This document shows positions 30,267 through 50,310 of a stretch of 64,000 nucleotides of DNA, piece by piece. This DNA comes from Planctomycetota bacterium (GTDB lineage: Bacteria > Planctomycetota > PUPC01 > DSUN01). The notes below the pieces were generated by a model that saw nothing but the letters and a program-made list of their open reading frames with translations, was not told where the DNA came from and ran no database searches. The translations under genes were made by a program, and so were the position numbers. Position 1 is the stretch's first letter. The number at the start of each line of letters is the position of its first letter. The stretch spans positions 10,545-74,544 of the forward strand of contig DAOOIT010000016.1 of assembly GCA_035384565.1 (NCBI GenBank), written 5' to 3'.

Positions 30267-30277
30267 GGCTTCTCCTC

Positions 30278-32905: not shown

Positions 32906-32917
32906 ATGGTTCTCCTG

Positions 32918-34414: not shown

Positions 34415-34417
34415 GGC

Positions 34418-37138
34418 TCACTCCTTGTGTGAAGCGAGGGCTGTGGCCACCTCGCCGGCCGCGTCGAAGAGGCGTCGGCTGCGCTCTTGCCAGCCGAAGG
34501 GCGCGATGTCCTGGCAGCGCAGGCGCCAGAGGCGCATCAGGTTGGTTCGCACGTCGAGGAGTTGCTGACAGCTACGAGCGAGGTCGGCGGGCAGGGGTTG
34601 GTGCTTGTTCAACAAGGCTTTCTCGATGAAGACTCGGGCCTCGGCCTCCTGGTTGCCCTCGCGGGCGCACTCGAGGCGAATGGTCGTCACAGGGCCATCG
34701 GGGCCCGGGGCGAAGAGGTCGGTGCAGCTCCGCCCGAGGCCGGTCTCGTCGGCGTGCGAATGGAAGTAACGGTTGAAGAGCGTGCCGCCGCTGCCGCCCA
34801 CAATGCCCCAGTCAGGCTTGCCGTCGCCGAGGAGTTGCGCGCCGATGTGCCAGTAGTCGCCGCCGACGCGGCCGTTGCCGGCCCGGCCATAGACCAGCGT
34901 GCTCTCCATCCACATACGGAATGACCAGGGCGGCGGGAAGCCGATCAGCAGCAGGGCCGAGCCGCTGCGGTTGAAGTTGAGGATAACCTGGTTCGGGTCG
35001 TACTGCCAGCCATAGAGGCGCCGCACGGCGGGGTCGGGGATGTCGCCGCCGTAGACCACCGAGTTCCAGCGGACGGGCACGGTGGCCTTGGTCGCCGGGT
35101 CGTAGACGTAGGCTCGCTGGGGCTGGTGCGACTCGGCGAGCCAGCCGGCCTCGGGCAGAATGCGGCGGAACATGGCCGCCGTGGGCGGGTCAGGCCCCAT
35201 GTCGCCAGCGATCCCGAGTACGACCCGGTCGCCCAGCCCTTTGGCCTTCAGCCGTTCGTGAAGCGCGACGAGCAGGGGGCGCCAGGCGGCCTCGCACTCG
35301 GGCGTGCCGTACTGGGGGAGCTTGACGCTCTCGCGCCTGCCCGTGGCGGGGTCAATGACTGTGACGCGGGCGCCATAGAAGGAGGCGTAATCGCGCGGCC
35401 CCTTCCACGTGCGGTTCGACGCCTCGTAGCCCCAGGCGTTCAGCGAGACGAATCGCAAGCGGCCGTGGGTCTTGAGCGCCGCGTCGAGATAGCGGTCGAA
35501 CCGGCTGAAGTCGTAGCGATACGAGCCGTCGGGCTGCTTGAGCCAGGGCACGAGCGATTCGGGGTTGCCCATTTGGGATTCGGCGAGCAAGGGGATGAGG
35601 AGGCCAATGTTGCCCATCTCGCCCATCAGCGCCAGGCTCTTCTCGATGAGCCGCCAATGCGCGTCGGACCAGGGCTCGACCTTGTAGTATCGAGCCAGGG
35701 TGTCGGGCGACTGATAGATGTGGAGGAGCGTCGCATAGTCCTTCACGTCGGGAAGGGTCCAGTCGCACACATGTAGTTCGAGGGTGCCGGCGAAGGCCCG
35801 GCCTTGCGCTTCGATGGCCAGTTCGCCGGTGTAGCGGCCGGCAGGAGCGCCCTTAGGCACCCTGGCCGATACCCAGATGGCCACGGCCGTGGCGTTGGCT
35901 GGCGGGGCGTCGAGAAGCATGTCGAAACGGGTGCCGCCCTCGGCGCCGGCATCGCGCTTCCAACGGGGCGGCGTGACGGGCATGCCCATCTGGCGCAGCG
36001 CGTCGGGCCAGAAGGGGTTGGGCACGCCGTAGCGCACGCGGATCGCCTCGGCGGGGATGAGGCCGCTGCCGCTTACCTGCTTGAGAGCCGCGGCCCTGGC
36101 CGAGAGGCCCCTCAGCGGCTCGTCGCTGGCCACGATGGCCTGGCCGGCGAAGGTGCCGTTGCGGGCGCCCACGATGCGCACCTTGCCTCGGCTCTCGTTG
36201 GCCGCCGACAGCGCGGGCTCGAAGAGCGTGCGCGTCGTGTCCACGGTCCACACCTGGATGCCGCCCGGTCCGGTCCTTGTGGCTCCATCCTGAGCGTCCA
36301 GGCGGAGTTCGAGGCGGCCCAGGCCCACCGTGGCGGCGATGGCGTCGGGCTGCCGCATGCACTGGGGCGGGTAGGTGCCGCGGTGCATCTCGATGGCGAG
36401 CACGTTCGCGCCGTTGCGCAGGGGGCCGAGCGGGATCGCGACGGGACCGAATGCCCGCTCGCGCAGCGCCCACTGCGGGCACCGGAGGTCGTTGGTGTCG
36501 AGGGGTCGGGGGCGGCCCTTCTCCAGGCTGTCGCGGTAGAAGAAGGCTTCGGGCGGGTATGCCTCAGCGGGGGTGCCGGGGCGCAGATTGCCCTCTGGCA
36601 GGTGCGCGCGGGCGACTTCGACGCCGTTGAGGTAGGCCACGAAGCCGCCGCGGCAGCTCAGCGCGAGCGTGAGCCTGCGCACCTTCGTGCGGTCGGCCAC
36701 GGCGAAGCGGCCGCGCAGGCACACCAGGCCCACGGCGGGCAGAAACGGGTCCGTGCCGCGGAGGCGCGTGCTGATTCCCTCCTGGCTCATCTCGCCGATG
36801 AGCTTGAGGTCTTTCACGCCGTGCTCGAACTCCTGGCCGGGGGCGAGGAGCCAGTCGTCATCGTCGAAGTCGGGTGCGGCCCAGTTCGATGGCGGCGCCT
36901 CGGGGAACATCGCGGCCAGGCTGTCGGGTCTGGGTGCCTGGGCACCCTCGTCCGCGAACACAGGTGGGAACGTGGTGTAGTGCTTGCGCCAGTAGTGGCG
37001 CTGGGTAAGGAGGGCTTCGCCGCCGCTCAGCGGCTCGGCTCCAGAGACGGGAGGGCCGCCGAGCGCCGACACCAGAAGAGCCATGAGCACTACGAGGGGG
37101 GGGCGCACAAGGAGCGAAGGCCCCCCAGACATGGTCAT
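34418..37138 (-). CDS. large secreted glycoside-hydrolase-like protein, paralog 3
   Basis: PDFDDDDW motif. Blocks HVCDWTLPDVKDY..SPDTLARYYKVEPWSDAHW and QEAEARVFIEKAL. The likely start is MTMSGGPSLLVRPPLVVLMALLVSALG at 37138; the ORF is open to 37396 but the upstream codons are R-rich low complexity. Confidence 0.78.
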   Translation of the reverse strand: MTMSGGPSLLVRPPLVVLMALLVSALGGPPVSGAEPLSGGEALLTQRHYWRKHYTTFPPVFADEGAQAPRPDSLAAMFPEAPPSNWAAPDFDDDDWLLAPGQEFEHGVKDLKLIGEMSQEGISTRLRGTDPFLPAVGLVCLRGRFAVADRTKVRRLTLALSCRGGFVAYLNGVEVARAHLPEGNLRPGTPAEAYPPEAFFYRDSLEKGRPRPLDTNDLRCPQWALRERAFGPVAIPLGPLRNGANVLAIEMHRGTYPPQCMRQPDAIAATVGLGRLELRLDAQDGATRTGPGGIQVWTVDTTRTLFEPALSAANESRGKVRIVGARNGTFAGQAIVASDEPLRGLSARAAALKQVSGSGLIPAEAIRVRYGVPNPFWPDALRQMGMPVTPPRWKRDAGAEGGTRFDMLLDAPPANATAVAIWVSARVPKGAPAGRYTGELAIEAQGRAFAGTLELHVCDWTLPDVKDYATLLHIYQSPDTLARYYKVEPWSDAHWRLIEKSLALMGEMGNIGLLIPLLAESQMGNPESLVPWLKQPDGSYRYDFSRFDRYLDAALKTHGRLRFVSLNAWGYEASNRTWKGPRDYASFYGARVTVIDPATGRRESVKLPQYGTPECEAAWRPLLVALHERLKAKGLGDRVVLGIAGDMGPDPPTAAMFRRILPEAGWLAESHQPQRAYVYDPATKATVPVRWNSVVYGGDIPDPAVRRLYGWQYDPNQVILNFNRSGSALLLIGFPPPWSFRMWMESTLVYGRAGNGRVGGDYWHIGAQLLGDGKPDWGIVGGSGGTLFNRYFHSHADETGLGRSCTDLFAPGPDGPVTTIRLECAREGNQEAEARVFIEKALLNKHQPLPADLARSCQQLLDVRTNLMRLWRLRCQDIAPFGWQERSRRLFDAAGEVATALASHKE

Positions 37139-37263
37139 TCCGAGTGGTGTCTTGCGAAGTCGAGGAATCTGCCGTCTGCTGGAGCCGAGAAGAGTCGCCT
37201 CGCCTTCGTTCGGCATGCGCAACCCCATTGCTGCGTCCACCGTGCGCCAGGGCATCATGAGAG

Positions 37264-39508
37264 TTACTGCTCCGGGAAGTTCAGGGGGTTCAGCGGGTCG
37301 GTGCCTGCCTTCTTCTCCTCTTCGTTCGAGTAGCCGTCGCCATCGGCGTCCGGGTCGGCGTTGTCGCCGATGCCGTCGCCATCGGTGTCGCGCCACTCCT
37401 TCGGGTCGCGGGGGAAGGCGTCCCAGGGCACGGCCGAGGCGTTCGGCACCCCGTCGCCGTCCCAGTCGAGTTCCTCGTTGTCGGGCACGCCGTTCTTGTT
37501 CAAGTCGTCCGCCTTGCCGTCGCCGTCAATGTCGGCGTCGAGGTTGTCGCCGATGCGGTCACCATCCACGTCGGCCTGCTCCTCACGCTCGAGGGGGAAG
37601 GCATCTTTGGCATCGGGCGCGCCGTCGTTATCGTCGTCATCGTCCTGATCGTTGGGCTGGCCGTCGCCGTCGCTGTCGGGCGGGGCGCCCTCGGTGACAA
37701 GGAGGGCGATGTCCACACTGAAGGGCGGTGCGACGAAGGTCTGCGTGCCGGCGGGGGCGTCGAGGCGGGCGAGGATGGCGGCGTCGGTGGGGCTGTACCA
37801 GTAGGCTTTGGCGGCCTGAGGCACGTCTACGGTGACTTGGAGGTCTTTGACCTCGCCGCGGTCGTGGTCCCACGTGTGGTGACGGGGCTGGCCGGCGGGC
37901 GTCTGTGCGCATTGGGCGCAGGCGCCGTGGTGGAGGTAGACGCCGGCGCGCCGGTCGGAGCGGAGGCCGTACGCCCGCACATCCTTGGCCTGCAACCCGG
38001 CCAGGTGGACGGGCATCGGCCTCACGCCGGCATCCAGGCAGTGGGCGAAGTCCTGGAGGGCCTTGGTGTACTGCCGCTCTTCGGGGCCGATCCAGATGTT
38101 CATGTGGTGGCCGTCCTTGGCGTAGGACGTTTCCCAGAAGATGAAGGAGACTTGGTTGAAGAAGGCGCTCCAGAGTCGGACGCGCATGCGGCGGGCGGAG
38201 CCTGGGTCCCACACGCCGCCGATGCCCTGGGGGATGAGTTCGGGTTTGCCGCCGCCGTTGCCCTGCTCGCCGTAGACGACGGGCTTGCCGTGCCGTTTGT
38301 GGTTCCTGGCGTTGCCGGCCGATGCCTGGTCGGAGGCGAGTTCGTCTTCGCGGCCGTACCAGTGGGGGGCCGAGATGTCAATGCCGGCCAGATCGGGTCG
38401 CTCCCAGCTCGTGGCCAGGGGCTTGCCGTAGGGGTCAATGGACTTCAGGTAGGGGATGGTGATGGCGTACCAGCCGTCGGCGGCTTTCTGCTCGTTGAGG
38501 AGTTCCCAGAAGTCCACGTAGGCGCCCCAGCGGTCCACCGAGTACTTGATGAGGGCTTTGACTTTGGCCATGCCCACGGCGTCGTCGGGCTGGTCATTGA
38601 AGACGCGGGCAAAGCCGAAGATGCCATAGAAATTGCGGATGCCATACTTCATCGTGAGCTGGAGCATCTCGTCCACCATCGCCGCCTGTTCCCAGCGGAT
38701 GCGGGCGGGGGTGGCGGCTTTGGGGTCGTAGTGGATGTCGAAGACGGGGATGGAGAAGTTGTGGGGCGAGAAGCGCCAGAGGTTGAAGCCGGCGCGAGCG
38801 TGGCGGCCGAAGTAGACGTCGCCGTTTTGCGGATTCATCGAGGGGCCGCGGGCAAACATCGCTCCAGGCGGCGGGGCGGGGCGCTCGCCGCCATGTGTGT
38901 CGAGGCGGAAGGGACCCTCCATGGACTTCTGGTCCATCGCTGATCCGTTGTGGTTGCCATCGAAGACGCCGTCCTGGGTGCCGATGGGCCAGAAGGGGCT
39001 GCCGTCTTCGTAGATGAAGGTGAAGGGGTTCGCGGGGTTGATGCGCACCCAGCCCTTGGGCGGGATGCGGGGTTTGACGACCTTGAAGGCTCCCTTGCCC
39101 TCCGTGCTCTGGCCCTGGGCATTGCGGAAGACCCATTCGTAGGACCACTCGCCCACCTCGCTCGGGGCGTAGCGGGCCTTCCAGGTGTCGGCGGGGTCGC
39201 AGGGCCAGACGGCGTCGGATCGCTCGCGGCCCTTGGCATCCTTGAACTGGTGGATGACCGGCTTCTGGGGCTTCGAGGAGCCGTAGAAGAAGCCACCGAC
39301 CTTGGGCTTCTTGCCGCTGGGCGACGTGAGGGCCACGTCAATCGTCACGTCCCAGTTCGGGTCGGTATACCTGCCCTCATGCTGGAAGGTCAGCTCAATG
39401 ACCTGGTAAGGCATGAGGCGCGGGGTGTTCTGGGTGACCTTCACCTCGAGGGCCCAGGCGGGCGCGAGCCCGCCGAAAGCCAACGCCAATGCCACCGGCC
39501 ATCGCATC
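37264..39508 (-). CDS. secreted GH-A-clan (cellulase-like TIM-barrel) hydrolase-like protein with C-terminal thrombospondin type-3 calcium-binding repeats
   Basis: Signal peptide MRWPVALALAFGGLAPAWA (ATG at 39508, GGAGG 9 nt upstream). Central TIM-barrel-like region has ..FWELLNEQK.. and ..VVYGEQGNGG... The C-terminal 150 aa are D-rich DxDGDGxxDxxD repeats typical of TSP3 Ca-binding motifs. Confidence 0.75.
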
Positions 39509-39521
39509 AGTGTCGCCTCCG

Positions 39522-41270
39522 TCACTTGAGGAAATCGGGCAGGTAGCTATCGCCGGAGTCCTTGGGCTGGAGCTTCTTGCGCTGCTCCTCGCGCTGGCGG
39601 CGCTCGGCCTCGCGGAGTGCGCGGTAGGAGCCGCGCGTGAGGCGATCCTCGTTGCCCGGCCCGGCGATGACGACGATGGAGCTCTCGGCCATCAGGTGCT
39701 TCTGCTTGGCATTGATGTGGTAGCAGCGGCTCTGGCACAGGCCGCAGCCGTTGCACTTGTCGGCGAGCACGACGGGCGCGGAGAAGCCGCTGCCTTCGAC
39801 CGGCTGGCCGTCGTCGCCGATCTCGACGTGGACGCGGACGAACTCGATGGCGTCGTAGCCGGCGGCCTTGCACTCGTCGAAGCACATCTGGCAGGCCTCG
39901 GTGCCGAGGTGCGGCAGGCAGGTGGCCTCGTTGACGATGGCCAGGCCGATGCGGGCGGCGCGCTTCTCGTCGAGCGGCAGGGCGCGAATCGCGCCCGTGG
40001 GGCACACCTGGCCGCAGTTGTTGCACTTCGGCTCGCAGCCGACCCAGTCGGGCACCACCTGCGGCGTCCACAGGCTCTCAAGGCCGTGCTCGAAGCCCAT
40101 CGGCTGAAGGACGTTGAACGGACAGGCCTTGAGGCACTGGCCGCAGCGGACGCACAGGCGCAGGAAGTCGGGCTCGGGCACGCTGCCCGGCGGGCGCAGC
40201 GGCGGGTGGTCGGGCGGCGCGCCGCGGAGCTGGCGAATCCCGACCGCTGCGGCCAGACCCGCCCCCAAGCCCATCGCGAAGCCGCGGCGCGAAACAGGGC
40301 CGTCGCTGGCGCCGGATGTGCGACGCGCGAGGCGCCGCCAGCCGAACTCGATGGCGTTGACGGGACACACCTTGCCACAGGTCTGGCAGAAAGTGCAGTC
40401 GAGGGCGCGGGTGGTGAAATCGGGCCTGATGGCGTCGAAGGAACATGCCCGCGCACACTTGCCGCATTGGATGCACGCCGGCGTCACCTTGCGCTCGGTC
40501 AGCCGGAGGACGTTCGCCACGGAGAAGACTGCGCCACTGGGACACAGGTACCGGCACCAGAAGCGGGCGGCGAGCAGGCCCAGCGCGATCGTGAGCACGA
40601 ACAGCCCGATGGAGAGGTAGTGCCCCGCGTGCATCGGCGGGATGAGGTACCAGCCCTTCGCCAGACCGAGTTGCACGGGGGCGGCCAGATACATCATCCC
40701 GCGCGTGAACACGGGGATGGCGGCGACGAAGCCCGACAGCAGCACGCCGCACGCCGCGGCGGCGAGGAGGCCGCCGAGCACATAGTACCGCAGATGCACC
40801 CACCAGCCGCGGCGCCGCGCTTCCCCCACCTTCTCGTCCCTGCGCTCTGCGTGGGAGCGTGTCTGCCGACGCTCTGCGTCGCGGGCACGGAGGGCCGCGG
40901 AGCGGCCGAAGAGGCGTCCCCAGGCGGAGCGCAGGGATGAGAGCGCGACATGGAACAGGTCGAGGAGGGTGCCGAAGGGGCAAACATAAGCGCAGAAGCC
41001 GCGCGGGATGACCAGGCACACGGCCAGCAGTGCGGCCGCCCAGGCGAGCGACCAGACCCAGGCTCGCGCCGCAATGGCCGTCGAGACGCTCACGAGCGGG
41101 TCGAGTGCGAGGAATGCCTCGGCCTCGACCATCTCGCGCGCGGCCCGCGCCTCCGCGTGGTGGCGCACGTCATAGGGCCAGCAGACGGAGAAGAAGAGGG
41201 CGAGGAAGAGGAGGAAGCAAGCAGATTGAATCGGCCGGCGGAGTCTGCCAATGGCGCGGAGCAGGAACAA
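39522..41270 (-). CDS. membrane-bound polyferredoxin, a NapH/MauN-like N-terminal half fused to a NapG/MauM-like C-terminal half
   Basis: Two CX3CP motifs in TM helices (CAYVCPFG, CRYLCPSG). Six CxxCxxCxxxC(P) 4Fe-4S motifs follow (CIQCGKCARAC, CTFCQTCGKVCP, CVRCGQCLKACP, CNNCGQVCP, CQMCFDEC, CNGCGLCQSRC). There is an internal twin-arginine-like motif, SRRGFAMGLGAGLAAAVG. Confidence 0.8.
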   Translation of the reverse strand: MFLLRAIGRLRRPIQSACFLLFLALFFSVCWPYDVRHHAEARAAREMVEAEAFLALDPLVSVSTAIAARAWVWSLAWAAALLAVCLVIPRGFCAYVCPFGTLLDLFHVALSSLRSAWGRLFGRSAALRARDAERRQTRSHAERRDEKVGEARRRGWWVHLRYYVLGGLLAAAACGVLLSGFVAAIPVFTRGMMYLAAPVQLGLAKGWYLIPPMHAGHYLSIGLFVLTIALGLLAARFWCRYLCPSGAVFSVANVLRLTERKVTPACIQCGKCARACSFDAIRPDFTTRALDCTFCQTCGKVCPVNAIEFGWRRLARRTSGASDGPVSRRGFAMGLGAGLAAAVGIRQLRGAPPDHPPLRPPGSVPEPDFLRLCVRCGQCLKACPFNVLQPMGFEHGLESLWTPQVVPDWVGCEPKCNNCGQVCPTGAIRALPLDEKRAARIGLAIVNEATCLPHLGTEACQMCFDECKAAGYDAIEFVRVHVEIGDDGQPVEGSGFSAPVVLADKCNGCGLCQSRCYHINAKQKHLMAESSIVVIAGPGNEDRLTRGSYRALREAERRQREEQRKKLQPKDSGDSYLPDFLK

Positions 41271-41436
41271 GAGAGAGCCCTCGACTTTGCTTGGCTCCGC
41301 TCGGGATCACGAAGGCCGACTGGGCCGCGTCCCCTCAGTACCGCCCCACAAGGAAGGGCGTGCAGTTCTGGTGGCACAGCCCCTAGGCTGTGGACGAAGC
41401 GGGGCGTGCGCCCAGGCGGCGTTCATGAGCAGGCGT

Positions 41437-42849
41437 TCATTTCATCGCCCCGGCGAGGGCCTTCGCGGTGGCGTTCACGATGGCCTCGGAGGTGATGGTG
41501 GCGCAGGTGACGGCGTCAATCCCCTTGACGCTCTGCTTGGCGACGATCTGCTCGGGGACGGCGACGAGCGAGCTGTAGTATTGCTTGTCTTCGAAGCGGC
41601 TGACTCGGACCGATTCGATGCGGCCGGCGGCGACGGTGACGGTGACCTCGAGCGGCCCGGCGTAGGAGATGCTGGTCGCGCGGTAGGCGCCGTCGGGGAT
41701 GCGCTTGAGGTCCAGGGCATCGTAGACCTTGATGGCGTCTATGTTGGCCTGGGCGCGGTTGCGGAGGCGCTCGATCTGGCCCTTGCGCTGGCCGATGGGC
41801 TGGATTTCGAGGACCTTCTGGTAGCGGGCGACGGCGTCGGAGTAGCGGCCGTGGAGGCGGCAGACGTCCCCGGCGGCGAGGTGGCCTTCGGCCACCCAGC
41901 TCTGGTCGCCGCGCTCGTCGGGCCGCGCCATGGCGGCGGCGAGTCGGAGGGCCTTCTCAGGCTCGCCCATTTCGGACCAGAGCTTGACGATGCCGGCCGA
42001 CACATAGCCGTCCACCTCGCGCATCTTGGCCACGGCCATGGCCTTGCTACCGAGGCGCCAGTAGCATTCGGCCAGGCGCACCGTGTTGAACACGCTGAGC
42101 TTCTGGCGGGCGGCCACCTTCTCCCACCAGAAGGCGGCCCGCGCCCAGTCCTGCATCAGGTTGAAGTAGCTGTTGGCCAACGCCTCCATGGTGCGCGTGA
42201 GCACGGGGGGATTGTCTTTGTGCACGGTGAGGAGGTGGTGGAGGAAGCGGATGCCGCTCTTCCAGCGGCTGGGGTTCTCGTTGATGGTGCTCCAGAGGTA
42301 TTGCCCGATGTTCTTCGAGGGGTTCCAGGGGCCTTGGGGCTTCTCGGGCCACGAGAGGTCGAGGCTCTGGGGATAGTCGAGGGGCGTGGCCTCGTACCAG
42401 TCGGGCGGCGTAGCGCCCGCCTTACGGATGAGCGCAGCCACCTCGGCTTGCGAACGTGCGCCGGCCTTGGGGCTGGGCTCCGACTTGGCCTCCGGCTCGG
42501 GGTCCGATGCCACCGGGGTCTTGGCGGCCTGCGGGGTCTCCTCGTCGTCGGGCGCCTCGCCGTGCTCAGGAGGCTGGGCCTTTGTGGCGGCCTTCGATTC
42601 GGCGCCGGGCTTCTCATTCAGCACGATGCGCCGGCCGCCGATGGTGACGGCGTGGACGCGCGAGACGGGGAACCGCATCTTCGTCTCGGCCCCGCCCATC
42701 GTCACGTTGAAGGTGATGGAGTCTTTGGACTCCTCGACCACGCTGCCGCGGATCCGCTGGCCGTTGAGGAGTTCGACCTCGTCGGCGAGCGCAAGGCCCG
42801 ACATCAGCAGCGAACCCGCAAGAAGCACTGCCATCACGTAGACCCGCAT
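41437..42849 (-). CDS. exported FMN-binding-domain protein (NosR/RnfG/NqrC-type FMN_bind domain at the C-terminus, TPR-like middle region)
   Basis: Signal peptide MRVYVMAVLLAGSLLMSGLALA (ATG at 42849, GGAGAAA upstream). The C-terminal block ..KGIDAVTCATITSEAIVNATAKAL is the conserved FMN_bind motif carrying the flavinylated Thr. A low-complexity P/E/A linker is present. Confidence 0.65.
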   Translation of the reverse strand: MRVYVMAVLLAGSLLMSGLALADEVELLNGQRIRGSVVEESKDSITFNVTMGGAETKMRFPVSRVHAVTIGGRRIVLNEKPGAESKAATKAQPPEHGEAPDDEETPQAAKTPVASDPEPEAKSEPSPKAGARSQAEVAALIRKAGATPPDWYEATPLDYPQSLDLSWPEKPQGPWNPSKNIGQYLWSTINENPSRWKSGIRFLHHLLTVHKDNPPVLTRTMEALANSYFNLMQDWARAAFWWEKVAARQKLSVFNTVRLAECYWRLGSKAMAVAKMREVDGYVSAGIVKLWSEMGEPEKALRLAAAMARPDERGDQSWVAEGHLAAGDVCRLHGRYSDAVARYQKVLEIQPIGQRKGQIERLRNRAQANIDAIKVYDALDLKRIPDGAYRATSISYAGPLEVTVTVAAGRIESVRVSRFEDKQYYSSLVAVPEQIVAKQSVKGIDAVTCATITSEAIVNATAKALAGAMK

Positions 42850-42956
42850 GCTCGGTTTCTCCAAGGCCCTGGGTCGCAATTCAAGCACGAAGGGGCGCTG
42901 GCCGTCAAGCGCGAAGGCCGACGGAGCGACCCGGCCATCCCACGAAGGGGCTGGCG

Positions 42957-45221
42957 TCACTCGCCCTGTATCTTGCGCAGCACCTCGACGAGACGGACGA
43001 CCTTGCCCTCCTGGTGGGCGATGCCGGCCGCCACGCGGTCGCCTGCGCGCACGGTGCCCAGGGCCTCCGCGAGAGCGGGGGGCAGCCCGTCGCGGTTCAC
43101 CGACACGGTGAGCAGCTTGCCGGCGAGGCCCTCGGGATTCCTGGCGGTGTTGGACTGCCAGACTCTCGTGACCTTGTCGGCGCGGAGGACCAGGACGCCT
43201 TCGCCCTTGCCGACCACCACGCCCTCGATCATCCCGCGGAAGCCTGCCACGTCGTCGGCCGTGGCCGGGCCGGCGGCTTCGGTGCGGGTTTCGGGCTTCG
43301 GCTCGTCGCGGCGCTCGCCGTCGCGGGCGACCTTCTTCTCGCGCCAGAACGCCTCGTCGTCGCCGTCGCGTCGCACGGGCTTCTCGCGGCGTTCGCCCTC
43401 GCCGTCGGGCGCGACCTTCTTCTCACGTCTCTCGCCGTCGCCCTCGGGGGCGGTCTTCTTCTCGCGCCAGCCGCCGTCGCCCTCGCCTTCGGTGCGAACC
43501 TTTTTCTCGCGCCAGCCGCCTTCGCCCTCGCCCGAGCGCTTGTCGCGCTTGGGCTGATCGGGCGCGTCGAGCACGCGGTACCTCTTCACCACGAGGCCCG
43601 GCTCGATGCCGTCCTCGCCCGGCGTCGCCTCGCCCACGAGGCGCACGCGGCGGCCGTTCGCCTCGTCCACCAGCTTCGCGCCGTCGGCCTCCTTGAGGAT
43701 GCGGTAGACGGTGACCTTCTCGCGCACGCCCTCGTCGGTCTCCTTGCGTTCGACGACTTTGAGGATGCCGGCGCAGTCGCGGTCGGGCGTGGCCTTCACC
43801 CAGCCCTCGAGTTCGCGCAGCCGACCGCTCTCGGCCTCGACCTTCTTGACGCGGGCGTGGCCTTCGCCTTCGCTCTCGCGGACGGGTTCGACCTTCTTGA
43901 CGCGCGCATGGCCTTCGCCCTCGCCCTCGCCCTCCGGCGCGATCCTCTTCTCACGATGGTGGCCTTCGCCCTCGCCTTCGCGGACGGGTTCGACCTTCTT
44001 GACGCGCGCATGGCCTTCGCCTTCGCCCTCGCCCTCGCCCTCGGAGCGAGCCGGCTTGTCGCGCTCGCCCTCGCCGCCTTCGGTTTCGGCCTTGCGAAGG
44101 AGCTCCATTACGGAGAGGCGGAAGCCCTGGATGTCGAATGCCTCGACGATGATCTGGTCGCCCTGTCGGAGCGACTTGAGGGTTTCGAGGTGCTTCTCGA
44201 GCATGCGGTTCTCGGGCACGACGACCTCGATCGTCTTGCCAACGGCCTGTTCGGGGTGTCGGGCCGTGCTCTGGGGCCAGGTGGCGGCCACTTTGTCAAT
44301 CTTCAGCAGGAACTCGCGTGTGACCTTGCTGGTGATGGTGCCGACGAGGATGCCCTTGAAGCCTTTGAGTTCGGGGGGCAGGGTCGGGCGCTCGGCGTCG
44401 CCGCCGGCGAACACCTGGCTCATGCCGGGGCCCAGCACCGCCACGTCGCCGAAGTGGCAGGCCACCATCCCCGTCACCACCATCACCGTCACCACGGCCG
44501 ACTTCTTCAGCGTCCCCATGTCGCGTTCTCCTTTCTGCGATTCGGGGTATTCGACGCTGGTGAGAAACTCGGTGCCTTTGACCTCGATGGAGCCGATGGG
44601 CGTGAGGAGCGTGAAGCGCCCCCTGCCCGGGTCAATGCGGGAGATGGCGCGGCCGCGCTGGAGCTCGATGGCCTCGTGGCGCGGCTGGCCGCGCACGACG
44701 GCCTGGGCGTTGGGGTCGAGGGCCACGCGGCAGTAGCCGCCGAGGGCGAGTTCGGCGCCGCCGGCTTCGGCGACGATGCGCTGGCCCCGCGAGAGCGCGG
44801 CGGAGCCGGTGCGGAGGGTGTCACCGTCGCCGAGGCGGAATGCGCCCGTGGCGATGAGCGAGTGTGCGCGCCCGCGGCTCGCCTGCCAGACGCCGTGGGC
44901 GGCATAGAGCGCGCCGAGGAGGACGGCGGCGGCCGCGGCCCAGCGCAGCCCTCGGCCTCGGCGGGCCGGGCGGCGCTGGATGGCGTGGGCTTTGGCGCGC
45001 AGGGTGGCCTTGGCGAGGAGACGCTCGCGGCTGTGGGCCAGGGCGTCGGCCTGGCGGCCTGCCAGGCGCTGGCGGAGCTGGCCCTCGAAGCACACGGCGG
45101 CCGCGGCCTCCTGGCGCCGGGCCGGGTCGGCGAGGGCGGCGGCCAGGGCGCGGGCTTCGGCCTCCGAGAGCGGCTCGCCCTCCAGCGCGCGGTCGAGGAG
45201 ATCGTGCCAGTGGCTGCTCAT
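42957..45221 (-). CDS. anti-sigma factor (N-terminal anti-sigma domain, one TM helix, FecR-like domain) with a long C-terminal extension of three repeated ~70-aa domains separated by EG-rich tandem repeats
   Basis: Start MSSHWHDLL at 45221 overlaps the sigma-factor stop (ATGA). TM LRWAAAAAVLLGALYAA. A FecR-like block (GSIEVKGTEF). Repeats (EGEGEGEGHARVKKVEPVRE)x4 and (GEGDGGWREKKxAPE)x4. Upstream in-frame codons (to 45527) are R/P-rich and were rejected. Confidence 0.7.
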   Translation of the reverse strand: MSSHWHDLLDRALEGEPLSEAEARALAAALADPARRQEAAAAVCFEGQLRQRLAGRQADALAHSRERLLAKATLRAKAHAIQRRPARRGRGLRWAAAAAVLLGALYAAHGVWQASRGRAHSLIATGAFRLGDGDTLRTGSAALSRGQRIVAEAGGAELALGGYCRVALDPNAQAVVRGQPRHEAIELQRGRAISRIDPGRGRFTLLTPIGSIEVKGTEFLTSVEYPESQKGERDMGTLKKSAVVTVMVVTGMVACHFGDVAVLGPGMSQVFAGGDAERPTLPPELKGFKGILVGTITSKVTREFLLKIDKVAATWPQSTARHPEQAVGKTIEVVVPENRMLEKHLETLKSLRQGDQIIVEAFDIQGFRLSVMELLRKAETEGGEGERDKPARSEGEGEGEGEGHARVKKVEPVREGEGEGHHREKRIAPEGEGEGEGHARVKKVEPVRESEGEGHARVKKVEAESGRLRELEGWVKATPDRDCAGILKVVERKETDEGVREKVTVYRILKEADGAKLVDEANGRRVRLVGEATPGEDGIEPGLVVKRYRVLDAPDQPKRDKRSGEGEGGWREKKVRTEGEGDGGWREKKTAPEGDGERREKKVAPDGEGERREKPVRRDGDDEAFWREKKVARDGERRDEPKPETRTEAAGPATADDVAGFRGMIEGVVVGKGEGVLVLRADKVTRVWQSNTARNPEGLAGKLLTVSVNRDGLPPALAEALGTVRAGDRVAAGIAHQEGKVVRLVEVLRKIQGE

Positions 45222-45712
45222 GGCGCCAGTTCCCCGGCCAGTTGGCCCTCGACGCATCGCTTGAGGGCTTGGCGGATGCGGAAGAGCTGGACCCGTACGG
45301 TGGCGGCGTTCCGGGAGAGCTGCTCGGCGATCTGGGTGACCCGCAGGCCGTGCTCGTAGCGGCGGGCCACGAGGTCGCGGTCCTCGGGCGATAGGGTGCC
45401 GAGGCAGTGGTCGAGGGCGGCGTGAAGCTCGCGGCTGGCGGCGCGCGAGAGTGCGTCGTCGGCCTCCTCGGCCAGGAGAGCGAGGCGGTCGGCGGCGTCC
45501 TGCGTCAGCTTCTGATGCTCGCGCCACCAGGTCTTCACCAGGTTACGCACGGTGCCGCGGAGCCAGGCGCCGGGGTCGCCGGTGAACTCGCGCCCCTCTT
45601 CCAGGCGGTCGAAGGCGATGAGGAATGCCTCGTGCACGATGTCCTCGGCCTCGGGGGCGCCGCGGGTGAGGAAGCGCGCGTAGCGCCACGCGCCTTCGTA
45701 GTGGCGGTCCAC
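45218..45712 (-). CDS. ECF-type RNA polymerase sigma factor (sigma-70 family group 4)
   Basis: ..RFEALVDRHYEGAWRYARFL.. is region 2.1/2.2, and ..LSPEDRDLVARRYEHGLRVTQIAEQLSRNAATVRVQLFRIRQAL.. is the region-4 HTH. GTG at 45710-45712. The in-frame upstream codons (..RLRHRFEALV..) suggest the true start lies a few codons further 5' at a non-ATG codon. Confidence 0.75.
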   Translation of the reverse strand: MDRHYEGAWRYARFLTRGAPEAEDIVHEAFLIAFDRLEEGREFTGDPGAWLRGTVRNLVKTWWREHQKLTQDAADRLALLAEEADDALSRAASRELHAALDHCLGTLSPEDRDLVARRYEHGLRVTQIAEQLSRNAATVRVQLFRIRQALKRCVEGQLAGELAP

Positions 45713-45860
45713 CAGGGCTTCGAAGCGGTGGCGCAGGCGGCTGATGGCGAGTCTCCTGGTATGTGCGGCCAGCTTCCTTCATAGGGTACTGTGGCGCGGG
45801 AATCAAATGTTTCACGGTTCTCCGCCTGCGGCGCCGGCATGTTGCTGCTTGGCAACATGC

Positions 45861-45983
45861 CACCCATACTTGCTCATTCCTGTGAGGGTGGAATTGAGCA
45901 AGTATGGGTGGAACGCCCCCGGAGGCCGCCGGATCGCCAAAGCGCCATACTTGCTCACCTGGGGGGATGAGCAAGTATGGGGG
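45861..45983. repeat. Family-A hairpin repeat cluster (four alternating copies of CCATACTTGCTCA / TGAGCAAGTATGG) in the divergent promoter region between the ECF sigma gene and the 46169 gene
   Basis: Copies at 45863-45876(-), 45895-45908(+), 45945-45958(-) and 45968-45980(+). The 45929-45958 copy carries the full 30-bp unit including GGCGATCCGG. Confidence 0.7.
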
Positions 45984-46168: not shown

Positions 46169-47434
46169 ATGAAGCAACGGGTTCTTTCGCGCCGCGGCTG
46201 GCTGGCGCGGGCCGGGGCGGGCGCGGCAGCCTTGGCCGTGGTGAACCGCTCCGCCCTCGGCGGCGAGGGGCGCCGGGCGCCCAGCGATGTGCTCACCCGC
46301 GCCACCATCGGCATCGGCGGCGCGCTGGCGGGCACCGTGCGCCCCAACGAGCCGGGGAAGCCCCCCTTCATGCTCGCGGTGTGCGATGTGAATGAGTCTC
46401 GCTTGCAGGCAGCACTCAACAAGGCGGGCTCGCCGTGCGAGGGCTATGTGGACTTCCGCCGGGTGCTGGACCGCCAGGATATTGACGTGGTCTACATCGG
46501 CACGCCGCCGCACTGGCACGCGCTGATCTCGATCATGGCGATGCAGGCGGGGAAGGACGTGTTGTGCGAGAAGCCGATGACGCGGTTCATCGCGGAGGGC
46601 CGGGCCGTGGCGGAGACGGCCCGCCGCTACGGCCGGCTCTTCCAGATCGGCACCTACGGGCGCTTCGGCGTCGGGGGCAACGACCGCACCTACAAGGTCA
46701 TGGCCAGCGGCGCGATCAAGGAGAACGGCCCGGTCGTGCGCTTCACGCGCCCCCAGTACGACTGGAAGGTGAAGATGTGGAGCGGCCGCACGCATCTCGA
46801 GCCGCAGCCCGTGCCGAAGGGGTTCCACTACGACCTGTGGCTCGGCCCCTCCCCTTCCAAGCCCTACCACCCGCACCGCGTGCACGGGAGCTTCCGCGGC
46901 TACTGGGACTACGATGGCGGCGGCCTGGCCGACATGGGCGAGCACTACCTCGACGGGCCGCAGTGTCGCTACGCGAAGGACCACACCAGCCCGGTCGAGA
47001 TCGAGGCTTCGGCCCCCCGGCCCCAGCACGACGAGGCCGTGCAGATGTGGGGCTGGGTGACGCTGAAGTACGCCGACGGCACCACGTTCATCCTCGAGAG
47101 CGGCGAGTGGGGCGAGCCGTGCCCGCTCCAGGAGCGCGGCTTGCCGCCGCTGACAGACGAGCAGGAGAAGCTGGTGGCCGCCGTGCCTGACATGCCGCGC
47201 AAGTACGGCGCCGGCGAGGGCAGCTTCGAGGAGGCCGTGCGCCTGCGCGTCCAGTGCGCGGGCAACGCCGACGTGTCGCACCGCTGCGCCACCCTGCTGC
47301 ACCTGGCCAACATCGCCATCCGCCTCGGACGCAAGCTGCGCTACGACCCCGACAAGGAGCAGTTCATCGGCGACGACGAGGCGAACCGCCTGGTGAACGT
47401 GCCCATGAGGGCGCCGTGGCATTTGCCTGTGTGA
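46169..47434 (+). CDS. Gfo/Idh/MocA-family oxidoreductase with twin-arginine (Tat) signal
   Basis: MKQRVLSRRGWLARAGAGAAALAV is a Tat signal (SRRGWL). ..DIDVVYIGTPPHWHA.. is the Gfo/Idh/MocA Rossmann block. ATG at 46169 is 7 nt after GGAGG. The long antisense ORF 45812-47422 was rejected. Confidence 0.8.
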   Translation: MKQRVLSRRGWLARAGAGAAALAVVNRSALGGEGRRAPSDVLTRATIGIGGALAGTVRPNEPGKPPFMLAVCDVNESRLQAALNKAGSPCEGYVDFRRVLDRQDIDVVYIGTPPHWHALISIMAMQAGKDVLCEKPMTRFIAEGRAVAETARRYGRLFQIGTYGRFGVGGNDRTYKVMASGAIKENGPVVRFTRPQYDWKVKMWSGRTHLEPQPVPKGFHYDLWLGPSPSKPYHPHRVHGSFRGYWDYDGGGLADMGEHYLDGPQCRYAKDHTSPVEIEASAPRPQHDEAVQMWGWVTLKYADGTTFILESGEWGEPCPLQERGLPPLTDEQEKLVAAVPDMPRKYGAGEGSFEEAVRLRVQCAGNADVSHRCATLLHLANIAIRLGRKLRYDPDKEQFIGDDEANRLVNVPMRAPWHLPV

Positions 47435-47458: not shown

Positions 47459-47600
47459 CTACTCCGGCCGCCAACCAGTTTGCAGTGGCCGGGATCACGC
47501 TGCGTCGGCCAGGGCATCAAATGTTCCGCTTGCGGTGGTTTTCGACAAGCGAGACGCTTGTCGCAACGCGGAAGAATGCGAACTGATTCGCGGCCGTGGC
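47459..47600. repeat. Family-B double-hairpin repeat (ACTACTCCGGCCGCCAACC..CCGCTTGCGG..CGACAAGCGAGACGCTTGTCG)
   Basis: It shares the ACTACTCCGGCCGC leader and the CAAGCG/CGCTTG palindromes with 7147-7245 and 60037-60110. Confidence 0.6.
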
Positions 47601-47685
47601 AGTATCTGTCCCCATCGGTGCCATCGGTCCTATAGAACAGATAGGACGGATAGGGCCGATAGGACGCCAGAGAGGAGAGAAAGCA

Positions 47686-50310
47686 ATGGTCGTCAGCCGC
47701 ACGGGCGTCGTGTTGGGAGCACTCGTCTTCGGGCTGGGCCTTGCGGGCCTGGCCTCCGCCGCTGAGCCGCCCCAGGGCGTTGCCGCCCTCGTGGAGAAGC
47801 TGCCCTGCGACAAGCCGGAGGAGGCACAGGCCATCCTCCAGGAGATCCTCAAGGGGGCGCCCGACAGCCTCGTGGAGCTGACGAAGATGCTCAAGGCGCC
47901 CGGCCCGGACGACGACAGCAAGGCCCGCTTCGCCCTCCACGGCCTGGCGACCTGGGTGCAGCGCGCCGACGCGGAGGCCGAACGCGAGCTCTTCGCGGAG
48001 ACCGTCGCGAAGCAGCTCGACGCCGACCTGGCGCCCGCGGTCAAGGGCTTCCTCATCCGCCAGCTCCAGCTCGCGGGCAAAGCCGAGTCCATCGCGCCGC
48101 TCGGCAAGTTCCTCACCGACGCGGAGCTGGGCGAGTACGCCGCCCAGGCCCTTCTGGCGATGAACGACAAGGCGGTCGTCCCGGTCTTCCAGGAGGCGCT
48201 GCCCAAGGCGACCGGCCCATGCCGCGTGGCCATCCTCCAGGCCCTCGGCGTGCTGCGCGCCGCGAAGGGCAACAGCATCGCCCTCAACGCCTTGGGCGAC
48301 AAGGACCGCGAGACGCGTCTCGTGGCGGCGTTCGCTCTGGCGAACTCCGCTGACCCCTCGGCCGTGGCGCCGCTGCTCAAGGGCGCGGAGGCCGAGGAGC
48401 AGTACGAACGCAGCCAGATGACCGACGCAGCACTTCTCCTCGCCCGCCGCCTGGGCGAGACGGGCGAGAAGGCGGCCGGGGCGAAGCTGGCACGCCAGCT
48501 CCTCGCGGGCAAGGCCAGCGGCATCCACGTCCGCTGCGCGGCCCTCGTCGCCCTGGCGGCCGCGGCCGGCGAAGAGGCGATGGATGAGGTGCTGGCCGCG
48601 ATGGGCAGCGAGGACCTGGACATCCGGGCCAGCGGCATCTCCGCCGCCATCGCCATGCCCGGCGAGAAGGCCACCCAGCGCTGGGTCGGCCAGCTCAAGG
48701 CCGCCAAGCCGGCGGCCAAGGTCGCCATCCTCGACCTGTTGGCCAAGCGCGGCGACCCGGCCGCGTGCCCGGCCGTCATCGAGGCGATGGGCGACGCCGA
48801 CGAGGCGGTGCGCCTGGCCGCCATCCGCGCCGCCGCCACCGCCGGCACCGAGGCTGCCGTGCCGCCTCTGGCTGCGAAACTCGCGGGCGAGAGCGCCGCC
48901 GAGCGCTCCGCCGCGCAGGGCAGCCTCCTCCGCCTTCCCGGGGAAGCCGCCACCGCGGCCCTCGTGAAGCAGCTCGAGGCCGCCGCGCCCGACGCCAAGG
49001 CCCCGCTCTTCGACATCCTGGCCGGCCGCAAGGGCCGCGAGCACCTGAAGACCATCCTGGGCTACACGGCCGACGCGAATCCCAAGATCGCCGCCGCCGC
49101 CGTCGCCGCCCTCGGCAAGCTGGCAGACGAGAGCGACCTGCCGGCCCTCGGCAAGCTCCTCCTGGAGGCGAAGGACGACGCCGTGCGCTCCGCCGCCGAA
49201 CGCGGCCTCGCCTCCGCCTGCTCCCGCTTGGCCGACAAGGAGAAGGCCACGGTCGCCGTCGCCGCCGCACTCAAGGACACCCAGGGCGCCGCCCGCGCCG
49301 CCCTCCTGCGCGTCCTGGGCGGCCTCGGCACCCAGGGCGCCTGCGAGACCCTCCGCGCCAGCCTGAACGACCCCAGCGCCGACGTGAAGAACGCCGCGAT
49401 CCGGGCACTGGCCGACTGGCGCGACGACGCCCCGGCGGCCGACCTCCTCCAGGTCGCGAAGACCGCCACGGATGACGTCCACCACGTCCTCGCCCTGCGC
49501 GGCTACGTGCGCCTGATCGCCGTGCGCAAGGACCGGCCGGCCGACGAGCGCCTGAAGATGTGCCAGGAGGCCATGGCCGCTGCAAAACGCGATGACGAGC
49601 GGCGCGCCGTCCTCTCCGCCGTCGGCGACATTCCCACCGCCGAAGCGCTGACGATGGCGGAGGCCAGCCTCGGCAATGCCGCCCTCAAGAACGAGGCGGC
49701 CATTGCCGCCATCAAGATCGCGCGTGCCCTCAGCGGCGCCGACCGCGACGCCGCCAGGCAGGCCATCGGCAAGGCCGCCGCCGCGAGTGACAACCCCGAA
49801 GTCCAGAAGCAGGCCAAGGAGGCCGTCGCTTTCCTCGAACGCAACGAGGGCTTCATCACCGCCTGGCTCGCCAGCGGCCCCTACAAGGGCGCCAAGACCG
49901 CCACCGTCCATGAGCCCGAGAAGCCCGAGGCCAAGGACGTGAAGTGGAAGCTCGTGGCCGCCACGGGCGACCAGCCGGGCTTCGTGGACCTCAACAAGGA
50001 GCTGGGCGCGCCCGGCGATTGCGCCGGCTACCTCAAGTGCCAGGTCTACTCGCCCAAGGAACAGCCCGCCGTCATCGAAAGCGGCAGCGACGACGGCATG
50101 AAAATCTGGCTCAACGGCGCCGTGGTCATGGACAAGGACGTGCCGCGCTCCTTCAAGCTCAACGAGGACCAGACCAAGGTCACCCTCAAGGAGGGCTGGA
50201 ACCAGTTGCTCATCAAAGTCGTCAACGGCGGGGGCGGCTGGGAGGCCGCGGTGCGGCTGCGCGCGCCTGACGGCGGGGCGCTGCCCGGCCTCAAGCTCAA
50301 GGCGGAGTGA
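47686..50310 (+). CDS. secreted HEAT-repeat (PBS-lyase-like) protein with C-terminal PA14-like domain
   Basis: Signal peptide MVVSRTGVVLGALVFGLGLAGLASA (ATG at 47686 after GAGGAGAG). About 700 aa of alanine-rich HEAT-like repeats. The C-terminal ..DDGMKIWLNGAVVMD..WNQLLIKVVNGGGGW resembles PA14. The antisense 1182-aa ORF was rejected. Confidence 0.7.
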   Translation: MVVSRTGVVLGALVFGLGLAGLASAAEPPQGVAALVEKLPCDKPEEAQAILQEILKGAPDSLVELTKMLKAPGPDDDSKARFALHGLATWVQRADAEAERELFAETVAKQLDADLAPAVKGFLIRQLQLAGKAESIAPLGKFLTDAELGEYAAQALLAMNDKAVVPVFQEALPKATGPCRVAILQALGVLRAAKGNSIALNALGDKDRETRLVAAFALANSADPSAVAPLLKGAEAEEQYERSQMTDAALLLARRLGETGEKAAGAKLARQLLAGKASGIHVRCAALVALAAAAGEEAMDEVLAAMGSEDLDIRASGISAAIAMPGEKATQRWVGQLKAAKPAAKVAILDLLAKRGDPAACPAVIEAMGDADEAVRLAAIRAAATAGTEAAVPPLAAKLAGESAAERSAAQGSLLRLPGEAATAALVKQLEAAAPDAKAPLFDILAGRKGREHLKTILGYTADANPKIAAAAVAALGKLADESDLPALGKLLLEAKDDAVRSAAERGLASACSRLADKEKATVAVAAALKDTQGAARAALLRVLGGLGTQGACETLRASLNDPSADVKNAAIRALADWRDDAPAADLLQVAKTATDDVHHVLALRGYVRLIAVRKDRPADERLKMCQEAMAAAKRDDERRAVLSAVGDIPTAEALTMAEASLGNAALKNEAAIAAIKIARALSGADRDAARQAIGKAAAASDNPEVQKQAKEAVAFLERNEGFITAWLASGPYKGAKTATVHEPEKPEAKDVKWKLVAATGDQPGFVDLNKELGAPGDCAGYLKCQVYSPKEQPAVIESGSDDGMKIWLNGAVVMDKDVPRSFKLNEDQTKVTLKEGWNQLLIKVVNGGGGWEAAVRLRAPDGGALPGLKLKAE

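Follow-up and report, generated by a model that had tools for sequence, protein, structure and literature searches.

Does an electron conduit that lies in one row with genes for secreted glycan-degrading enzymes take part in their chemistry, or does it only share their control? This question is raised by a 64,000-nucleotide stretch of a contig from an uncultured member of the Planctomycetota (hereafter the window; GC content about 68%), whose minus strand carries five co-directional genes coding for an extracytoplasmic function (ECF) sigma factor, a FecR-type anti-sigma factor, an exported flavin mononucleotide (FMN)-binding protein with tetratricopeptide repeats (TPR), a NapH-NapG fused polyferredoxin and a secreted hydrolase with TSP3 repeats (Table 1). 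A first-pass annotation of this DNA had listed these five genes and had seen in them a possible redox-assisted machine acting on extracellular polysaccharides. All five open reading frames (ORFs) were recovered, with GC contents at third codon positions of 0.80–0.90, and are among the long reading frames kept as likely coding by a codon-position GC screen; every domain call was upheld by Pfam and NCBIfam. The polyferredoxin and the hydrolase match, with 100% identity, proteins that carry the NCBI label "MAG TPA: Planctomycetota bacterium". We give about even credence to the explanation that an ECF-controlled glycan-degradation cluster has incorporated its lineage's copy of a planctomycete NapH-like flavin conduit. 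The client of this conduit is most likely something other than the chemistry of the hydrolase.

The FMN-binding protein and the polyferredoxin

The FMN-binding protein begins with a cleavable signal peptide (residues 1–22, MRVYVMAVLLAGSLLMSGLALA, cut before DE) and belongs to a family of TPR-FMN proteins whose members are about 43–50% identical across homologues. Its C-terminal block, in which an FMN_bind domain had been called, matches PF04205 at residues 396–465 with 40.3 bits against a cutoff of 22. Within it lies the flavinylation motif DAVTCATITS (residues 445–454, nucleotides 41488–41517), with T451 as the candidate target. Most of 120 homologues conserve the pattern D[AT][VT][ST]xAT[IM]TS with its candidate threonine, nearly all others carry a close variant of it, and many of the 120 show the canonical form DAV[ST]GATITS. 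In seven of the planctomycete loci that we compared (such loci are numbered with the prefix L), namely L056, L057, L058, L062, L065, L068 and L074, an ApbE gene stands directly 5' of the orthologous pair and is co-directional with it; the identity of the ApbE product was checked by Pfam in three of the seven (1e-68 to 1e-74). The ApbE gene that adjoins the pair in these loci lends flavinylation independent support; in the window protein, T451 is the residue that would carry the covalent FMN. TPR domains mediate protein-protein contacts.

The polyferredoxin matches PF12801 in two stretches (45.8 bits against a cutoff of 22), and belongs to a family whose many Planctomycetota members share about 55–60% identity from end to end. 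It has four strong transmembrane helices (residues 12–35, 66–100, 160–190 and 215–239), with CX3CP motifs at C93 and C239. Its [4Fe-4S] motifs follow a 2+4 layout: the first two, of the form CxxCxxCxxxC, begin at residues 266 and 292 and span 266–302, and four motifs of the NapG type lie at residues 373–383, 412–423, 451–467 and 506–516. An internal SRRGF sequence (residues 327–331, nucleotides 40278–40289), whose R328 and R329 are invariant in 28 aligned family members, precedes a fifth, weakly hydrophobic and Gly/Ala-rich segment, GFAMGLGAGLAAAVGIR, with a Kyte-Doolittle hydropathy of 1.38 and Arg residues after it. Given the weak hydrophobicity of this fifth helix, we infer the periplasmic location of the NapG-like half from a homologous system (see below).

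A second exported TPR-FMN_bind paralogue, which we call FMN2, is about 300–320 residues long, bears the canonical motif DAVTGATIT and lies among the hydrolase genes of several relatives (L007, L008, L053, L134–L136 and L140). It is not found in the window, L005, L006 or L133.

The hydrolase

The secreted protein consists of a signal peptide, a β-sandwich (residues 23–143), a TIM barrel (154–490), a second β-sandwich (496–605) and a TSP3 segment (610–747). An AlphaFold model built with 26 homologues reaches a moderate pLDDT of 68, is poorly determined near residues 334–337 and 416–434, and shows a DUF5060 β-sandwich, a (β/α)8 barrel, a C-terminal β-sandwich and a disordered Asp-rich tail. The best Foldseek match to this model is the GH5 enzyme ManDH5 (E-value 4e-28, target-normalised TM-score 0.69, 14% identity), followed by the structure 4n0r (the putative hydrolase BVU_0362), which agrees with the GH-A-like character that had been ascribed to the protein. 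The TSP3 repeats named in the same annotation were likewise found: the tail has Asp-rich repeats that match PF18884, and is predicted to bind calcium. In a profile search of the PDB, 9gmj matched the DUF5060 part, and the type 3 repeats of COMP and thrombospondin-2 matched the tail (3e-10 and 5e-7). PF00150, which represents GH5 proper, gave no match to this protein at E-values up to 0.01, so that it falls outside GH5 by sequence; a genuine GH5 gene is encoded elsewhere in the window (1966–3567; 5.6e-43).

Enzymes of clan GH-A have their acid/base and nucleophile glutamates on strands 4 and 7 of the barrel. The candidates in the window protein are E339 as the acid/base, in the motif LNEQ, and E414 as the nucleophile, in the motif GEQGN. 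N338-E339 and E414 are invariant in the 26 close homologues, and the extended motifs WELxNE and FGEQGN are kept down to 25–36% identity in proteins from metagenome-assembled genomes (MAGs) labelled Deinococcus, Anaerolineae, Binatia, Armatimonadota, Terriglobia and Patescibacteria. Since these glutamates are conserved in both close and distant homologues, the protein is probably a conventional clan GH-A glycosidase, probably a retaining one, whose catalysis would require no electrons.

The hydrolases of the PVC subfamily are further marked by two inserts that bear Cys or His residues: one with C103 (around 39190–39210) and one of the form HHxxCxxC...HxWDH (residues 526–548, nucleotides 37861–37932). 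C103, H526, H527, C530, C533, H544, W546 and H548 are invariant, and the inserts might provide a metal site or a disulfide bond. L043 and all distant homologues lack them. Their presence is independent of a nearby redox module, as they are also seen in the unlinked loci L019 and L026.

Distribution of the conduit and the hydrolase

The pair of FMN protein and polyferredoxin is an autonomous unit across Planctomycetota. An alignment scan of metagenome contigs, together with single-protein look-ups, gave 30 loci with an orthologous polyferredoxin outside the lineage in which the pair is linked to the hydrolase (delineated below). The FMN gene lay directly 5' of the polyferredoxin gene in 19 of the 21 loci with enough upstream DNA, and within 1.6 kb in 20 of these. 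None of the 30 showed a sigma factor homologue, and in the 23 loci where 2.5 kb or more of downstream sequence was available the DUF5060 hydrolase was always absent. Annotation-free clustering of the neighbouring ORFs revealed ApbE as the sole further recurrent neighbour of the pair.

The hydrolase family, in turn, is 62–86% identical across MAGs labelled Planctomycetota, Phycisphaerae, Verrucomicrobiota and Sumerlaeia. Outside the linked lineage we collected 34 loci encoding a hydrolase at least 55% identical to the window protein; a flank of 5 kb or more was available on one side in 23 of them and on both sides in 9. No polyferredoxin and no FMN_bind gene turned up in the flanks at hand, and thus a system of conduit plus hydrolase does not exist as a general rule. 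The most widely kept neighbour of the hydrolase family is the gene for an SBBP β-propeller, found in 10 loci including those of distant homologues and of Anaerolineae and Terriglobia MAGs. GH123-like orthologues occur 3' of the hydrolase gene in L006, L008, L053 and L137.

The two modules come together in one lineage, and they do so in three gene orders. We delimit this lineage by a sigma factor orthologue at least 64% identical, and a hydrolase at least 75% identical, to the window proteins. In order A (the window, L005, L006, L008/L053, L133 and L137, and L138 as far as the end of its contig) the genes for the sigma factor, the anti-sigma factor, the FMN protein, the polyferredoxin and the hydrolase are followed by FMN2, where present, and GH123; the order noted in the window thus recurs in related genomes. 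Order B (L134–L136 and, in part, L009) runs from the sigma and anti-sigma genes through a gene for a 130-residue protein, the hydrolase, PKD, GH2, SBBP, FMN2, GH123 and FG-GAP genes to the FMN protein and the polyferredoxin. Order C (L140) comprises the hydrolase, a β-helix protein, a PKD protein, FMN2, the FMN protein and the polyferredoxin. The outer flanks vary among the linked loci, for example between L006 and L005. A neighbour-joining tree (no bootstrap support) unites all linked FMN proteins in one super-clade, which makes a single capture with later rearrangement the simplest history; a separate capture of the pair in each of the three orders would be less parsimonious. A linkage that has survived rearrangement, and to which a second FMN carrier has been recruited, is more than trivial synteny, yet it is confined to one lineage. 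The three gene orders and the position of FMN2 among the hydrolase genes make a lineage-specific functional tie possible.

A separate remark concerns one database record (JBGLNR010000001.1, GCA_041320515.1). At 5.09 Mb (L001) the first 209 residues of a hydrolase follow the polyferredoxin gene, and the FMN gene is cut to 114 residues; at 1.93 Mb (L023), 3 Mb away on what is given as a 5.97-Mb contig, hydrolase residues 176–747 are followed by SBBP and GH123 genes. We read the two as a split copy of the operon. The record looks like a concatenation of contigs, and its synteny is therefore unreliable. A 768-residue GH2_C-like protein near the L001 polyferredoxin was considered as a hydrolase homologue and rejected (BLASTP E-value 0.068).

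Control of the gene row

The sigma factor contains sigma-70 regions 2 and 4 only and is recognised by the general model TIGR02937 with 79 bits against a cutoff of 42.9. Its best subfamily match is to TIGR02989, the Rhodopirellula/Verrucomicrobium type, under the cutoff of that model. The anti-sigma factor passes the threshold of FecR PF04773 barely (24.6 bits against 24). Its gene lies downstream of the sigma gene and is translationally coupled to it by a 4-nucleotide overlap, and the pair of coupled ECF sigma and anti-sigma genes read from the sequence at first pass is hence sound in its domains as well as its arrangement. The C-terminal two thirds of the anti-sigma factor hold two copies of a domain of about 120 residues without a Pfam match, with low-complexity spacers of the EGEGEG/GEGEGH type between them. 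The same domain also occurs as the separate 130-residue gene of L134 (9233–9625) and apparently of L009 (9000–9311). In L134, and apparently in L009, this gene directly follows an anti-sigma gene that is shorter and has a copy of the domain at its own end.

The motif GAAAC-N17-CAGTAC was found exactly once per locus, no more than about 105 nucleotides 5' of the sigma gene, in seven loci (the window, L005, L006, L008, L133, L134 and L009), and no second copy was seen within those seven clusters. It is a good candidate for an autoregulated ECF promoter, and the sole one of its type in the row. The hydrolase ATG lies 14 nucleotides past the polyferredoxin stop codon. Since this gap stays at 13–16 nucleotides across five loci (the window, L005, L006, L008 and L053), the polyferredoxin and hydrolase genes are very likely co-transcribed. 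Co-transcription of the whole row from the ECF promoter is plausible, and the conduit and the hydrolases would probably be co-expressed from this one promoter 5' of the sigma gene. A scan of positions 28000–46500 for sigma-70 promoters and terminators returned 9 terminator-like sites, where 9.2 are expected by chance, and two promoter-like sites, neither of which is informative for the operon. A search of the window with Rfam gave no known RNA element such as an FMN riboswitch.

Proposed explanation and alternatives

In the explanation that we favour, the ECF sigma factor and its FecR-type anti-sigma factor would head a cluster of exported glycan degraders, made up of the DUF5060/GH5-like hydrolase, two GH123-like proteins and the SBBP propeller. 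In one planctomycete lineage an ApbE-dependent, NapH-like conduit, conserved in the phylum, would have become embedded in this cluster. The four NapH-type helices with their CX3CP motifs would form the part of the conduit that faces quinol, with two [4Fe-4S] clusters on the cytoplasmic side, and the NapG-like domain with its four clusters would be brought to the periplasm by the internal twin-arginine motif and the fifth helix of weak hydrophobicity. If the conduit works like its homologues, namely the quinol dehydrogenase NapGH, NosR/PceC and a characterised fused polyferredoxin, electrons would pass from membrane quinol to the NapH part, from there to the periplasmic NapG-type clusters, then to the covalent FMN on T451 and finally to a client, and the TPR part of the FMN protein could serve to dock client proteins. 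The hydrolase, for its part, would work by ordinary acid/base catalysis with E339 and E414.

Several observations weigh against this explanation or parts of it. The motif of the window protein has a Cys at the Gly position of the ApbE-type consensus Dxx[ST]GA[ST], and no ApbE gene is found within the 64-kb window; the fifth helix of the polyferredoxin has the low hydropathy given above. Gaps of 107 nucleotides between the anti-sigma and FMN genes and of 166 nucleotides between the FMN and polyferredoxin genes could house internal promoters, and strong hairpins are seen in the anti-sigma/FMN gap of L006, L008 and L133. From the opposite side, a linkage that persists in three gene orders and the insertion of FMN2 among hydrolase genes argue that the tie may go beyond a regulatory one.

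These last features also speak for a coupled machine, in which quinol electrons would flow via the polyferredoxin to the TPR-FMN carriers (the FMN protein and FMN2). The carriers would dock to a protein encoded in the cluster and power, or draw electrons from, a redox step that acts on the glycan or the enzymes themselves. The linkage is kept across a clade whose FMN proteins have diverged to 49–54% identity, and the short polyferredoxin-hydrolase gap fits such a machine. So does a gene for an oxidoreductase of the GFO/IDH/MocA family, exported by twin-arginine translocation (Tat), which adjoins the sigma gene in most loci of order A; the Cys/His inserts of the hydrolase could moreover bind a metal. 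However, none of the genes in the row codes for a recognisable redox enzyme, the GH-A catalytic pair of the hydrolase is complete, and the inserts of this protein also occur in lineages where the modules are unlinked. Outside the clade the modules are never found together, whether one starts from the polyferredoxin (0/23) or from the hydrolase (0/34). Within the clade, four of the loci named above have no FMN2, and L006 and L134 have no GFO gene. The machine suggested by the first-pass annotation thus fails as a general system, while the linkage itself stands in one lineage and three arrangements. We consider a coupled machine unlikely, albeit the alternative that survives best. It is likewise doubtful that a quinol-fed flavin relay, running from the polyferredoxin to one or two TPR-FMN carriers, is a working part of extracytoplasmic glycan degradation in this lineage, and the same doubt covers the associated idea, part of the same joint reading, that the relay would supply or remove electrons for a step beyond the reach of ordinary hydrolases. 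If this were true, candidate steps would be a reductive or oxidative pre-processing of a modified glycan, the re-oxidation of a Tat-exported sugar dehydrogenase or the activation of a metal site in the Cys/His inserts of the hydrolase, and ApbE-type flavinylated conduits would, to our knowledge for the first time, be linked to the breakdown of polysaccharides.

The fact that both modules are autonomous everywhere else can also be taken to mean that the pair landed next to a hydrolase cluster once, in an ancestor, and has stayed there under its own promoter with no regulatory or functional relation to its neighbours. The single super-clade of linked FMN proteins is consistent with such a single origin, and the two wider gaps, with the hairpins ahead of the FMN gene in relatives, leave room for the separate promoter. 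Yet the pair stays in one co-directional cluster through three arrangements and despite varying outer flanks (L006 compared with L005; L134 and L140), the hydrolase part has taken up FMN_bind paralogues, each cluster has a single ECF-type promoter motif and the hydrolase starts directly behind the polyferredoxin, and we hold a neutral juxtaposition to be rather improbable. A redox-signalling role, in which the FecR anti-sigma factor would learn from the FMN protein and polyferredoxin about the redox state of the quinone pool or the periplasm, so that the hydrolase cluster is tuned accordingly, would suit the location of the pair directly after the sigma and anti-sigma genes in order A and L138, as well as the use of TPR domains as contact modules. 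It seems very improbable to us: in orders B and C the pair either lies a long way from the anti-sigma gene or is seen without a sigma gene, the pair exists in 30 loci without a sigma homologue, and we know of no precedent for redox input to an anti-sigma factor through such a pair. An accessory role for a classical respiratory reductase (for instance N2O reductase with NosR/NosGH, or periplasmic nitrate reductase with NapGH) is effectively refuted, as the weak matches to NapG, NapH and NosR models that suggest it all lie far under the ortholog cutoffs (36.9 bits against 1000 for the NosR model NF046105; 94.8 against 269 for the NapG model NF007012, 38.8 against 234 for the NapH model NF007013 and 45.9 against 213 for TIGR02163), which rules out membership in NosR/NirI and orthology to NapG or NapH, and as no nosZ, napA, nirS or cytochrome c gene is present in the window or the related loci examined.

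The preferred explanation, with the conduit captured by an ECF-controlled cluster, matters beyond this locus. Most NapH-like flavinylated conduits have no known client, and the version in Planctomycetota, with its TPR-FMN carrier and NapH-NapG fusion, is distinct and nearly phylum-wide. The linked lineage offers the sole stable genomic context that we found for this conduit, namely ECF-controlled secreted glycan-active proteins. It thereby provides a handle for finding the client, and the role of electron supply in planctomycete glycan degradation becomes testable. Should the tie prove merely regulatory or historical, the conduit and the DUF5060 hydrolases are independent modules and the hydrolase is an ordinary GH-A enzyme.

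Neighbouring genes and other features of the window

The coordinates of the features discussed here are given in Table 1. The hydrolase start had been placed at 39508; this position is out of frame and would give 11 in-frame stop codons, and we have adopted the ATG at 39507 instead. Nor does the row end with this gene at 37264, as had been assumed: three or four further co-directional genes follow. A gap of about 125 nucleotides separates the hydrolase from the first GH123-like gene, after which the SBBP gene follows at 3 nucleotides and the second GH123-like gene at 12 nucleotides; the latter is likely the last gene of the tightly spaced row. All the downstream proteins of hydrolase type have signal peptides. 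No CxxCH heme motif was found in the ten cluster proteins examined.

Table 1. Positions of the genes and elements of the cluster and its surroundings in the window, and of FMN2 in related loci (locus number: position)
Feature	Position	Strand	Matches and remarks
ECF sigma factor, 164 aa	45218..45712	-	Sigma70_r2 4e-10, Sigma70_r4_2 4e-11
FecR-type anti-sigma factor, 754 aa	42957..45221	-	FecR PF04773
Exported TPR/FMN_bind protein, 470 aa	41437..42849	-	TPR; FMN_bind PF04205, 5e-10
NapH-NapG fused polytopic polyferredoxin, 582 aa	39522..41270	-	Fer4_5 PF12801 x2
Secreted DUF5060/GH-A-like hydrolase with TSP3 tail, 747 aa	37264..39507	-	DUF5060 1e-11; TSP3_bac 9e-9
GH123-like exported protein, next in row	34418..37138	-	GH123_cat 3e-22; signal peptide
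SBBP beta-propeller protein	32918..34414	-	SBBP PF06739 5e-17
Second GH123-like protein	30278..32905	-	GH123_cat 3e-22; GH123_N_2 4e-12
Ceramidase-like gene, N-terminal match only	28216..29622	-	beyond 655-nt gap
Candidate ECF-type promoter GAAAC-N17-CAGTAC	45786..45813	-	74 nt 5' of sigma gene
Tat-signal (SRRGWL) GFO/IDH/MocA oxidoreductase	46169..47434	+	divergent from sigma gene
HEAT-repeat protein	47596..50310	+	divergent from sigma gene
FMN2 copies	L007:4918-5856, L008:12283-13215, L053:13982-14914, L134:19238-20203, L140:4576-5475

The GFO/IDH/MocA oxidoreductase that diverges from the sigma gene has as its best NCBIfam match the glycoside 3-dehydrogenase BT_2158 family, with 140 bits against a cutoff of 750. 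It is found, together with the HEAT-repeat gene, at the same position in L005, L008/L053, L133 and L137, and is not beside the sigma gene in L006 or L134. As an enzyme bearing a Tat signal it is conceivable as a periplasmic redox client of the conduit. A general partner of the pair it is not, since a homologue lies near the pair in just one unrelated genome (L002/L003, 34% identity).

Some further observations concern the window at large. It contains three GH123-like genes (within the spans 28216–37138 and 14362–16893), besides GH5, GH4 and heparinase-like genes; this mix of GH123, ceramidase and GH5-like products hints at glycoconjugate or glycolipid substrates containing N-acetylgalactosamine. 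Inside the 655-nucleotide gap (29907–30080, minus strand) a stretch of 58 residues is 78% identical to SBBP residues 301–358 and is probably the relic of a duplicated SBBP gene. A palindrome resembling repetitive extragenic palindromic (REP) elements (CCATACTTGCTCA ... TGAGCAAGTATGG) forms hairpin pairs at 6989–7083, 12414–12448 and 45864–45980, all intergenic, with 9 matches where 0.5 are expected by chance; the copy at 45864–45980 is located in the divergent sigma/GFO promoter region.

Comparison with known systems

The hydrolase shares the succession of DUF5060 β-sandwich, barrel and C-terminal β-sandwich, the conserved NE acid/base motif and the nucleophile glutamate with ManDH5, the GH5 β-mannanase of Dictyoglomus thermophilum (9gpa, 9gpe, 9gmj), and with BVU_0362. 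It differs from ManDH5 in its added TSP3 tail and in the PVC-specific Cys/His inserts. In Bacteroidota there are polysaccharide utilisation loci controlled by ECF sigma and anti-sigma factors, and the row resembles such loci in that an ECF sigma factor and a FecR-domain anti-sigma factor head exported glycan-degrading enzymes. Unlike them, it contains no gene for SusC/SusD or a TonB-dependent transducer, and it has a duplicated C-terminal domain in the anti-sigma factor and an electron conduit.

With NosR/NirI and PceC the conduit shares a domain logic that had been recognised from the outset and that is upheld by our analysis: an exported FMN domain, here putatively flavinylated, working with a CX3CP/[4Fe-4S] membrane protein, from or into which it would feed on the periplasmic side. 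Whereas those proteins are single chains, the FMN domain here belongs to a soluble protein of its own, a NapG half is added, and the context contains no nos, nir or rdh gene.

The membrane partner is closest in architecture to the polytopic polyferredoxin described by Tooke et al. 2017 as a NapH-NapG fusion, the first four helices of which are inserted by the Sec pathway before the C-terminal domain is translocated by Tat (PMC5449189). The two have in common four N-terminal helices, two [4Fe-4S] motifs on the cytoplasmic side, a twin-arginine motif right before a weakly hydrophobic fifth helix, positive charges after it, and a four-cluster C-terminal domain of the NapG type; from this architecture, Tat-dependent translocation of the C-terminal domain is predicted for the window protein as well. 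The planctomycete family is 29–35% identical to the other, non-orthologous fused polyferredoxins of our scan, and differs from them in its partner: a DUF362 gene accompanies the distant polyferredoxins in 31 of 35 loci, and a TPR-FMN_bind gene the planctomycete ones. In the distant loci (35 analysed, within L086–L132) the DUF362 gene precedes the polyferredoxin gene and takes the position of the TPR-FMN gene of Planctomycetota, which suggests that different periplasmic partners can be exchanged on one and the same membrane module.

Finally, the survey of Meheust et al. 2021 reported 539 NapH-like flavinylated clusters with a separate FMN-binding gene, in an apparatus that is modular and for which most NapH-like systems have no known reaction (PMC8238504). 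By their predicted features the two genes of the window fit the operational definition of these systems, in that a multi-helix Fe-S membrane protein with PF12801 stands beside an FMN_bind protein with a signal peptide and a candidate ApbE-type motif. With a split FMN gene and a NapH-NapG fusion both on record, the claim of the first-pass annotation that the system had not been described does not hold for its parts (PMC8238504, PMC5449189). The present case departs from those systems in its FMN carrier of about 450 residues, with an SHD1-like N-terminal domain and TPR, in the NapG half fused to the membrane partner and in the placement of the module inside an ECF-headed glycoside-hydrolase cluster. 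The main text of the 2021 survey makes no mention of such an ECF/glycoside-hydrolase context, and its examined supplements contain no PF16586 or Planctomycetes entries (PMC8238504); a flavinylation paper of 2024 mentions none of NapH, tetratricopeptide, glycoside, Planctomycetes or iron-sulfur. As far as we found, the combination is thus a lineage-restricted variant without earlier description, each component of which is of a described kind. The parts will not surprise a specialist; what is unexpected is that a flavin conduit, along with additional FMN carriers, is stably associated with a cluster of glycoside hydrolases.

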